Source of the DNA: Bacteroidales bacterium
GTDB taxonomy: Bacteria > Bacteroidota > Bacteroidia > Bacteroidales > UBA12077
Assembly: GCA_028282585.1 (NCBI GenBank)
Contig: JANQHR010000044.1
Coordinates: 1 to 38,328 of the forward strand
Reading direction: 5' to 3'
DNA length: 38,328 nucleotides
Shown: positions 27,135 to 29,416 of the stretch, in pieces
Layout of the letters: each line of letters begins with the position of its first letter
How positions within the stretch are numbered: the first letter of the stretch is position 1
Notes under the pieces: generated by a model
What the model was told of the DNA's origin: nothing
Database searches by the model: none
What the model saw: the letters and a program-made list of their open reading frames with translations, nothing else
Position numbers and translations under genes: made by a program

Positions 27135-27698
27135 CTACCGATTATTAAACTCACTCATCGTATTTGCAATACCTATGGTACCAAAACTTTTTATTGCTTC
27201 AATAGCTAAATCAATCCTTGGAGGTAATTGTTCTTTTTCTTCATCAGTCCAGGGACTAAGTACATAGTGTGCTTGAGCGCCTTTTGGATAATCATCCCCA
27301 ATACCAAAGCGCAATCGGGCATAATTTTGATGTCCCATTGTAAAATTAATATCTTTCAATCCGTTGTGTCCCGCATCGGAACCTTTAGCACGAACCCTAA
27401 TAGCCCCAAAAGGTAAAGCTACATCATCAACAATTACCAGTAATTTATCAACACTCAGTTTTTCTTTTTGTAACCAAAAATTTACTGCTTTTCCACTTAA
27501 GTTCATAAAAGTGGTTGGCTTAATAAGAACAAACGTACGCCCCTTGAATTTATATTCAGCGCGAAATGCTAAACGTCTATCCTGAAAAGTAATATTGGAT
27601 GCATCAGCCAATGCATCCAATATTTTAAATCCAATATTATGTCGAGTATTTACATACTCGTTACCCATATTTCCTAAACCGACAATAAGGTATTTCAT
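27135..27698 (-). CDS. pth: Peptidyl-tRNA hydrolase
   Basis: LIVGLGN, TRHNIGF, KPTTFMNLSG, AGHNGL. Confidence 0.96.
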   Translation of the reverse strand: MKYLIVGLGNMGNEYVNTRHNIGFKILDALADASNITFQDRRLAFRAEYKFKGRTFVLIKPTTFMNLSGKAVNFWLQKEKLSVDKLLVIVDDVALPFGAIRVRAKGSDAGHNGLKDINFTMGHQNYARLRFGIGDDYPKGAQAHYVLSPWTDEEKEQLPPRIDLAIEAIKSFGTIGIANTMSEFNNR

Positions 27699-27715: not shown

Positions 27716-28363
27716 CTATTCTGCAGCTTCTTCTTTTGGTGCTTCTCCTCCTTCAGCAGGCGCTTCTCCTTCAGCTCCTTCTTCGCCTTCTTCACCTTCT
27801 TCTTCAGCAGCAAGAACAGCAGCACGTGCAGTTTTAATAAGAACCACAACAGCATTTGCAGGTTCCATAAATTCTATGCCATCAAAAGTAAGGTTTGCAA
27901 TTTTAATAGATTTACCAATAGCTAAATCAGTAATATCTATTGTAATTTCATCAGGCAACTGGCTAGCAAGTCCTTTTACCTTTACTTTTCGCATTTTTTG
28001 TACTAATCTACCACCATTTAGTACACCAATTGCATTACCGGTAAGTACAACAGGCATTCTCATCCATACAGGTTCTTTTTCATGTACCTGATAAAAGTCG
28101 GCGTGAATAATTTTATCAGATACAGGGTGAAACTGAATATCTCTTAATACTGCATCAAATGCTTTTCCATCAATGTCTAATTTCACAAGGTATGCATTTG
28201 GCGTATAAACAACTTCCTTAAACGAATTCTCATGAGTATGAAAATGAACATTCTCACCATTCCCATATAACACGCAAGGAATTTGATCTTGCTTTCTTAA
28301 ATTTTTCGAATTCGTTTTTCCGACAGATTCTCTTAAACTTCCTTTTACTTCAACAGTTTTCAT
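27716..28363 (-). CDS. rplY: 50S ribosomal protein bL25 / general stress protein Ctc
   Basis: LR..DQIPCVLYG, QFHPV...IIHADF, Ctc C-terminal domain and acidic tail; prs-rplY-pth order. Confidence 0.95.
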   Translation of the reverse strand: MKTVEVKGSLRESVGKTNSKNLRKQDQIPCVLYGNGENVHFHTHENSFKEVVYTPNAYLVKLDIDGKAFDAVLRDIQFHPVSDKIIHADFYQVHEKEPVWMRMPVVLTGNAIGVLNGGRLVQKMRKVKVKGLASQLPDEITIDITDLAIGKSIKIANLTFDGIEFMEPANAVVVLIKTARAAVLAAEEEGEEGEEGAEGEAPAEGGEAPKEEAAE

Positions 28364-28378
28364 TTCTTAATTATTTTT

Positions 28379-28431
28379 GTGCTACTCAGAACAATACTAA
28401 AAACCCTTAAGCTTCTCATTCCCCATCACAC
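28379..28431 (-). ncRNA. Candidate cis-regulatory rplY leader hairpin containing a 5S rRNA loop E mimic
   Basis: mRNA GUGU-GAUGG-GGAAUGA...UUGUUCU-GAGUA-GCAC folds with GAUGG opposite GAGUA between two helices and ends 15 nt before the ATG. Confidence 0.65.
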
Positions 28432-28464
28432 TTTTATACAATATGCTTTTTTAAATTGGGAGTG

Positions 28465-28472
28465 CAAATATA
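28465..28472 (-). promoter_or_regulatory. -7 box for rplY-pth
   Basis: Minus strand TATATTTG just after the prs stop, predicting a leader of roughly 95 nt. Confidence 0.65.
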
Positions 28473-28477
28473 TACTT

Positions 28478-29416
28478 TTATACTATAAAATTCGAACTTA
28501 TCGATTGATAATTATATACTTTCTTTATAACATCGGCAAAAATATCCGCTACGGATAGTACTTTTATTTTATCTGAAATAGGTTTGATCGGCAATGAATC
28601 GGATACAACAACCTCTGTAATTTTTGAATCGTTAATTCTTTCATAAGCAGGACCTGACAAAACAGCATGCGTTGCAATAGCTCTAACACTTTTTGCTCCT
28701 TTATCCATCATTAAATCGGCAGCTTTAGTGATTGTTCCTGCTGTATCTATCATATCATCTAAAATGATAATATTCTTATTAATAACATCTCCAATCACTG
28801 TTAATTCATCAATTACATTTGCTCTTTTTCTAGATTTATGACAAATCACCATTGGTGTTTCTAAAAATTTCGAATATGCATTGGCTCTTTTGGTTCCTCC
28901 CATATCGGGAGCTGCAATTACCAAATTATCAAGATTTAAGCTTTTAATATAAGGAACAAAGATTGATGATGCATACAAATGATCAACAGGAACATCGAAA
29001 AATCCTTGAATCTGGTCAGCATGTAAATCAAGTGTCATAACACGGTCAACTCCAGCCGCAGTTAATAAATTTGCTACCAATTTTGCTCCTATTGAAACAC
29101 GCGGCTTATCTTTTCTGTCTTGACGCGCAAAACCAAAATATGGCATTACTGCAACTACCTTGTAAGCTGAAGCTCTTTTTGCTGCATCGATCATTAACAA
29201 CAGTTCCATTAAGTTATCTGAAGGAGGAAATGTAGATTGAATTATAAATACATATGATCCACGGACTGTTTCTTCATAAGAACACTGGAACTCTCCATCA
29301 CTAAATTCTATAAAAGCAGTACTACCTAATTCAACACCATATTCTTTTGCAATTTTTTCTGCAATATAACGTGATTTTGTTCCTGAAAACAGTTTAATTG
29401 GAGGTTGAAGACTCAT
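28478..29416 (-). CDS. prs: Ribose-phosphate pyrophosphokinase
   Basis: FSDGE, PYFGFARQDRK, DLHADQIQGFF, APDMGG, DDMIDTAGT. Confidence 0.97.
   Translation of the reverse strand: MSLQPPIKLFSGTKSRYIAEKIAKEYGVELGSTAFIEFSDGEFQCSYEETVRGSYVFIIQSTFPPSDNLMELLLMIDAAKRASAYKVVAVMPYFGFARQDRKDKPRVSIGAKLVANLLTAAGVDRVMTLDLHADQIQGFFDVPVDHLYASSIFVPYIKSLNLDNLVIAAPDMGGTKRANAYSKFLETPMVICHKSRKRANVIDELTVIGDVINKNIIILDDMIDTAGTITKAADLMMDKGAKSVRAIATHAVLSGPAYERINDSKITEVVVSDSLPIKPISDKIKVLSVADIFADVIKKVYNYQSISSNFIV

Follow-up and report, generated by a model that had tools for sequence, protein, structure and literature searches.

It is textbook knowledge that ribosomal proteins (r-proteins) can regulate their own synthesis by binding mRNA copies of their rRNA sites. 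The leaders of L1, S8, L20 and S15 imitate rRNA sites, and the element described here would follow the same logic, in which the mRNA holds a weaker copy of the rRNA site that is bound once the rRNA is saturated. To our knowledge, none of these mimicry leaders copies 5S rRNA; we know of no earlier leader that imitates 5S rRNA and of no clear prior case of rRNA mimicry for bL25, the r-protein whose ribosomal binding site is loop E of 5S rRNA. Leaders of this kind, which imitate rRNA, are cited as 'molecular mimicry' in PMC4408793.

The only studied bL25 operator is that of Escherichia coli, where L25 was shown in vivo to repress its own translation (Aseev, Bylinkina & Boni 2015, PMC4408793); a preliminary description of the present locus had pointed to bL25 autoregulation in Gammaproteobacteria. 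The same paper states that the E. coli operator hairpin 'does not resemble' loop E, so mimicry is no general rule for bL25, and that the leader also holds elements needed for high translation. In a 2024 review, operator features of the E. coli type are confined to species with a short, one-domain bL25, and Bacteroidota are said to use no Shine-Dalgarno (SD) pairing (PMC10931766).

We analysed a 38,328-nt stretch of DNA (the window) from a Bacteroidales bacterium (assembly GCA_028282585.1, contig JANQHR010000044.1), in which the leader of rplY carries a hairpin with a partial copy of loop E. The family RF03131 (L25-Gammaproteobacteria leader) resembles this element in being a hairpin of the rplY 5' UTR just upstream of a weak or absent SD site, and it is proposed to let L25 compete with the 30S subunit; repression is likewise proposed for the element in the window. 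As an RNA, RF03131 is nevertheless unrelated: its hairpin is 26 nt long and closes with a GUCG loop, whereas the window element copies an rRNA site and serves a two-domain bL25. Neither the GUCG-loop 26-nt hairpin nor the GAGA SD-like element of RF03131 occurs in the window leader. The preliminary description had proposed an Rfam/Infernal scan as a check on novelty, and no existing family matched: Rfam 15 gave no hit in the whole window at the gathering score and none at E up to 10 in positions 28300-28520. As a positive control, the rplY leader of E. coli K-12 was searched with RF03131 (threshold 34.1 bits) and scored 46.9 bits.

Leader candidates for S4, S15, S16, L13 and L19 have been reported from Bacteroidia and Flavobacteria (Eckert & Weinberg 2020, PMC7247131). 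Like the window element, these candidates come from the same phylum, have covarying structures, and had their ligand deduced from the sole downstream r-protein gene; Table 1 of that paper lists no L25 leader outside Enterobacteria. L25, rplY and loop E are not mentioned in Weinberg 2010, Weinberg 2017 or a 2026 preprint on noncoding RNA discovery, the words L25 and ribosomal protein are absent from Ryan 2020, and the sole mention of rplY in Jha 2021 is in a table of SD frequencies. Our literature search, with supplements and subscription journals outside its scope, gave no prior description; the author of the preliminary description likewise knew of no Bacteroidota equivalent. Unlike the leaders of L1, S8, L20 and S15, the window element would operate in a lineage without SD pairing.

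The locus lies on the minus strand, where open reading frames and Pfam matches within the window give the gene order prs, rplY, pth. The prs gene (29416-28478, identified by Pfam; stop codon 28480-28478) is separated by a 114-nt spacer from rplY (27716..28363), which encodes a two-domain (CTC-type) bL25 of 215 amino acids with an L25p domain (PF01386, 7.8e-24) and a TL5 C-terminal domain (PF14693, 1.6e-20). The solved structures nearest to this protein are bL25 chains 9i5t_Y and 7jil_V. Past the TL5 domain, the C-terminal tail consists of about 30 low-complexity acidic residues rich in E, G and A (27716-27810). The pth gene for peptidyl-tRNA hydrolase (27135..27698; PF01195, 6.3e-60) starts 18 nt after the rplY stop codon and probably shares its transcript; a terminator scan of the minus strand found no terminator-like site in the gap. 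A terminator-like hairpin with a T-run does occur at 28543-28557 on this strand, within the 3'-terminal part of the prs reading frame, and may be due to chance.

Directly after the prs stop codon is a Bacteroidota-type -7 box, TATATTTG, at 28465..28472, exactly as first reported. Between the presumed start of the rplY mRNA, which is placed from the -7 box, and the hairpin (28432..28464), the sequence is conserved only within the genus. The hairpin itself (28431-28379) is conserved in relatives. Its outer helix (P1) is formed by GUGU (28428..28431) and GCAC (28379..28382), and its inner helix (P2) by GGAAUGA (28416..28422) and UUGUUCU (28388..28394). Between the two helices, GAUGG (28423..28427) faces GAGUA (28383..28387) in an internal loop resembling loop E. 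The variable apical part (28395..28415) comprises a GAAGCU-UAAG-GGUUUU helix (28415-28400) and a UAGUA bulge (28399-28395). An A-rich, single-stranded linker of 15 nt with no SD sequence (28364..28378) leads to the AUG at 28363-28361. The leader sequence given in the preliminary description matches the minus-strand letters exactly in all segments and coordinates, and every pair listed there is a standard or G.U pair.

The minimum-energy structure of the leader computed with RNAfold has this same topology. The fold energy is ordinary (z = +0.55 relative to shuffled sequences) and the RNAfold centroid is unstructured; since the energy is no better than that of shuffles, we do not count thermodynamics as support. 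An inner GAA/AGUA pairing was considered as a second, sarcin-ricin-like module and ruled out, since three congeneric leaders (L004, L007, L021) have AAUA or UGUA at that place.

We equated GAUGG and GAGUA with positions G72-G76 and G100-A104 of 5S rRNA. Covariance searching found no 5S rRNA gene in the window's own assembly, and the RF00001 model found 5S genes in eight genomes of the window's order. Two congeners and five of the six other genomes of the order, which belong to other genera, have CCGAUGGUAC...GGGAGAGUAGG in their 5S genes, and hence GAUGGUA/GAGAGUA as the two strands of loop E. These strands recur in the E. coli RNA that was crystallised with L25 (PDB 1DFU; Table 1 of PMC1920249), so the ones quoted in the preliminary description are correct by both standards. 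Its further claim that five loop E pairs are reproduced also held: the leader has G.A, A.U, U.G, G.A and G.G, letter for letter and consecutively.

The copy extends to five of the seven loop E pairs and is bounded by two helices. The second submotif of a complete, seven-pair loop E (U.A, A.G) is not present in the leaders: of 88, 71 have G.U at the sixth loop position and 87 have a standard pair at the seventh. On the outer side the two RNAs agree, 5S loop E being flanked by C71-G105 and the leader copy likewise by a Y-R pair. They differ on the inner side, where loop E and helix IV of 5S rRNA have U77.A99, A78.G98 and a tandem G.U, and the leader has instead a G.U pair and a helix of free sequence. 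The RF00001 model, which does detect the 5S genes of relatives, has no match to the leader (28300-28520) at E up to 10.

RNA modules of this kind are distinguished as bacterial loop E type or sarcin-ricin type (AGUA/GAA), and the invariant U opposite G in the leaders fits the former and not the latter. In work of Stoldt and colleagues from 1999, an induced helix of L25 reportedly docks at the junction of loop E and helix IV. With the helix-IV-proximal pairs and the tandem G.U missing, the leader copy may bind bL25 weakly or in another register. For the pseudo-symmetric half site a flipped docking, in which the outer helix (GUGY/RCAC) would stand for helix IV of 5S rRNA (GYGG/CUGC in relatives), was also considered; it is disfavoured because variants with other outer-helix letters argue against a base-specific reading of that helix.

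Two genomes of the order are worth recording with respect to the relation between leader and 5S rRNA. In G138, loop E of the 5S gene (L210) has changed to GAUGAUA/GAAAGUA, with an adjoining U-A pair in place of C-G, and the rplY leader of the same genome (L083) still has GAUGG/GAGUA despite this change, which counts against mimicry. In G109, rplY near a contig end (L241) is preceded, at about 70 nt, by the end of a 5S gene (…CCGAUGGUACUGC…GGGAGAGUAGG…); this rplY has no leader hairpin, and its upstream neighbour is the real loop E of the 5S gene.

Conservation was examined in 88 distinct leaders for the anatomy of the element and in a 61-leader alignment (A2) for covariation. Pair 1 of the loop is R.A in all 88 (G in 67, A in 21), pair 2 is A.U and pair 3 is U.G throughout, and pair 4 is G.A in 86 and G.G in two. 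Pair 5 is freer (G.G 63, G.A 14, G.U 6, A.U 4, U.U 1). Read by strand, the 5' side is GAUGG in 65 leaders, AAUGG in 18 and one of five others with a changed last base, so that AUG is invariant; the 3' side is GAGUA in 63, AAGUA in 12, UAGUA in 11 and AGGUA in two, so that GUA is invariant. The apparent invariance of the core is inflated, as the models and patterns used to gather the leaders were themselves derived from the motif.

The four positions of the outer helix are paired throughout the 88 leaders except for six C.A and one A.C. Its sequence is mostly GUGY/RCAC, with compensatory variants GCGU/GCGC (in two genomes), GGGU/GCCC and GCAC/GUGC, and GUU/AAC in another order. Its closing Y.R pair is U-A in 39 leaders, U.G in 38, C.A in six and C-G in five. 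The inner helix shows compensatory changes in six of its seven pairs among the 61 aligned leaders, pairs 2-6 varying freely in sequence while remaining paired. Its first pair (28422 with 28388 in the window) occupies the place that U77.A99 has in 5S rRNA; 71 of 88 leaders have G.U here, even though the helix could be closed by a pair of any kind.

The covariation is far above expectation. In the 61-leader, model-fitted alignment, 96.9% of the cells are paired compared with 86.2 +/- 0.8 in shuffles, and 76 cells have changes on both sides compared with 21.8 +/- 3.8; none of 500 shuffles reached the observed value for either quantity. When the partner is slid by one column, pairing falls to 35-47%. 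Because this alignment leans towards the model, two further checks were made. An alignment-free tally of consecutive pairs counted inward from the loop gave 515 compared with 276 +/- 11 in shuffled sequences, and RNAalifold, applied to 29 diverse leaders aligned with MAFFT and not fitted to the model, returned the same two helices, with compensatory changes in seven of 12 pairs.

These comparisons refine the hairpin as first drawn: conservation covers only the outer helix, the internal loop and five to seven pairs at the start of the inner helix, and the GAAGCU/GGUUUU helix and UAGUA bulge are specific to the genus. The suggestion that the structure works only on the mRNA strand is upheld by the first inner G.U pair (71 of 88) and the closing U.G pair (38 of 88), which become mismatches on the other strand; with so many conserved G.U pairs, the structure belongs to the mRNA strand. 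The two strands of the loop enclose 15 to 69 nt in the 61 aligned leaders, and the longest later match has a span of 122 nt. Atop the inner helix, 37 of 77 leaders have a GRAGY word, often the SD-like AAGGAGC (for example L052, L055, L060, L062, L067 and L081). Its counterpart in the window is GAGAAGC (28417-28411), too far from the AUG for an SD role.

The loop core is present in 22 of the 30 rplY loci obtained from a set of 38 relatives (17 of 23 in the same genus and five of seven in other genera), and the inner-helix sequences of the five other-genus loci are quite different. A covariance model (R1), built from the leaders of 21 relatives (alignment A1), has a single match in the window's own 4.9-Mb genome (E 5.6e-15) and none further up to E 1. 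Among 151 genomes of the same order, R1 has exactly one match in each of 54, a figure that is a lower bound and not a prevalence, since the strict filters missed 26 true instances in this sample. According to tblastn, 53 of the 54 sites lie directly upstream of an rplY start. The 54th is at a contig end, and the rplY of that genome, on another contig, is preceded by the 3' half of the motif, the rest being N. A protein search found rplY in 147 of the 151 genomes; the four in which it was not detected are not among the 54 with an R1 match.

Because strict filters lose weak matches, the rplY upstream regions of R1-negative genomes were read: 260 nt were taken in 80 genomes and rescored unfiltered with a second model (R2). 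This added 24 genomes, plus G068 and G030, and brought the tally for the order to 142 genomes examined, out of the 147 with rplY: the element is present in 80 and absent from 58, and four are unclear. In the genomes read, the element is always directly upstream of rplY.

In the samples from beyond the order the element was almost never found. Searches with R2 of 151 genomes of the class and 151 of the phylum gave matches in four and five genomes, respectively, all of which belong to the window's own order. One of 28 rplY loci of other orders (L098) carries a variant with the loop intact and the outer helix changed (19.7 bits). A descriptor (RAUGN...NAGUA with at least three outer and at least four inner pairs), which matched one of 1440 shuffled 200-nt upstream regions, was applied to 72 named loci, including Flavobacteriaceae, Cytophagaceae, Cyclobacteriaceae, Saprospiraceae and Balneolales and 38 titled outside Bacteroidota; it matched only two, in records titled Bacteroidales and Bacteroidaceae. 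The nearest public relatives of the window bL25 (70-79% identity), in records titled 'Bacteroidales bacterium' or 'Bacteroidetes bacterium', carry the element.

The preliminary description had called this a candidate Bacteroidota leader. Conservation among relatives stands, with the GAUGG/GAGUA core almost unchanged and the flanking helices covarying in related leaders, as it had proposed to check; the range is narrower than the name implied, one order (80 of 142 genomes) and not the phylum at large. The element is also dispensable, being absent from 58 of the 142 genomes and from six of the 23 same-genus loci. In genomes without it, rplY mostly lies directly behind prs: 51 upstream regions without the element were taken from the 80 read, and a prs-like C-terminus immediately precedes rplY in 43 of them, whereas a -7 box occurs in 14. 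Gain and loss of the promoter seem to accompany those of the leader.

As an 8-mer, the -7 box means little in so AT-rich a sequence (72 occurrences of TAnnTTTG in the window compared with 64 expected), and only its conserved placement counts. TAnnTTTG is found upstream in 74 of 77 motif-bearing leaders and ends 17-37 nt before the hairpin in 72 of them. Given this conserved box upstream, the hairpin should lie within the mRNA, and from the same position we infer that rplY transcription starts upstream of the hairpin. Spacing on the other side is similarly tight, with 12-22 nt (median 15) from the end of the hairpin to the AUG in 72 of 77 leaders.

The element is a covarying structure immediately upstream of an r-protein gene, an arrangement typical of autoregulatory r-protein leaders. 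All the computational checks favoured the inference of the preliminary description that bL25 acts here on its own mRNA. The element is probably a cis-acting, autoregulatory rplY leader, in which surplus bL25 binds the loop E copy and represses its own synthesis, and would in that case likely found a new family of r-protein leaders that act by 5S rRNA mimicry. We are somewhat less confident, though still inclined to think, that it is the first leader to imitate 5S rRNA, and that a half loop E placed about 15 nt before the AUG lets free two-domain bL25 block SD-independent initiation across a large Bacteroidota order.

The sequence suggests the following course of events. Transcription would start a few bases past the -7 box (28472-28465), and the 5' UTR would fold into the hairpin at 28431-28379, whose 4-bp outer helix and covarying inner helix set GAUGG opposite GAGUA. 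When present in excess of free 5S rRNA, bL25 is predicted to bind the half loop E of the leader and to clamp the marginal 4-bp outer helix. The protein would then sit where the 30S footprint begins on its upstream side, some 15 nt ahead of the AUG. With the fixed spacing of about 15 nt and initiation without an SD sequence, bound protein and clamped helix could together keep the 30S subunit off the start site. Initiation on the unstructured A-rich linker would be hindered, and synthesis of bL25, perhaps of peptidyl-tRNA hydrolase too, would be lowered.

A structural 5' UTR element independent of bL25 would explain part of the data and is the least improbable of the alternatives, although we think it unlikely. 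The hairpin could stabilise the mRNA against RNases, or serve as a standby site or enhancer for SD-independent initiation, with the loop E as a rigid, Mg-binding block. Loop E submotifs are recurrent RNA modules, and a fixed spacing to the AUG suits any role in translation. High-translation elements are described for the E. coli rplY leader (PMC4408793). This explanation leaves unaccounted for the occurrence of the element once per genome and only at rplY, the letter identity of five pairs to the bL25 site in the lineage's own 5S rRNA, and the invariance of the loop letters amid drifting helices.

The loop might instead be the target of some other RNA-binding protein, or of a small RNA, that regulates rplY-pth. 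The GRAGY word, which 37 of 77 leaders contain, might serve such a factor as a second site, but rplY is the sole r-protein gene behind the element, and the copied rRNA site is that of bL25; uL5 and uL18 contact 5S rRNA elsewhere. We therefore consider a different ligand improbable. Still less credible is a transcription attenuator, or an element acting on the DNA or as part of the promoter, in place of a translational operator. The hairpin is indeed close to the promoter, but what follows it on the minus strand is an A-rich run and not a U-run, a terminator scan found no terminator-like site there, and the compensatory changes and conserved G.U pairs point to an RNA structure of the mRNA strand. 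A functionless relic, such as a 5S gene fragment, or conservation by shared descent alone is the most doubtful proposal. Such neighbourhoods do occur, as one genome of the order has a 5S gene as the immediate upstream neighbour of rplY (L241), but the leader in the window has no RF00001 match at E up to 10, its inner helix is unrelated to helix IV, and its core is kept, with covarying helices, across L25 proteins only 35-50% identical.

If bL25 does regulate itself through this leader, the operator would differ from the only one studied, that of E. coli, which is described as unlike loop E (PMC4408793). It would also offer a natural minimal loop E for asking what bL25 recognises, with the half site defining the minimal loop E determinant that the protein needs. 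For Bacteroidota, which initiate without SD pairing, it would provide a first handle on r-protein feedback, and a new Rfam-type family could be used for annotating many genomes of the order.

Congeners and sister genera that lack the hairpin would serve as natural 'knock-outs' for comparison. In six same-genus loci without it (L014-L018 and L020), the -7 box (TATATTTGCGG) is still present, about 60 nt upstream of rplY, and part of the short leader, AACACAUAAUAA, is similar to the element's 3' end; the loss of the hairpin looks like a natural deletion. In one genus of the order (L096, L097), the leader directly follows a sequence like the 3' end of a tRNA (GGTTCGA.TCC…) instead of prs, and L097 is without a -7 box; transcription at these loci may come from the upstream RNA gene. 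Lastly, L292 (genome G101) and L154 (Tangfeifania sp.) have in common a different rplY leader (…UUAUG CAUGC …GGACU GAGUAC CAUAA…), in which AUG opposite AGUA is kept between other flanks, and which may be a degenerate relative of the element.
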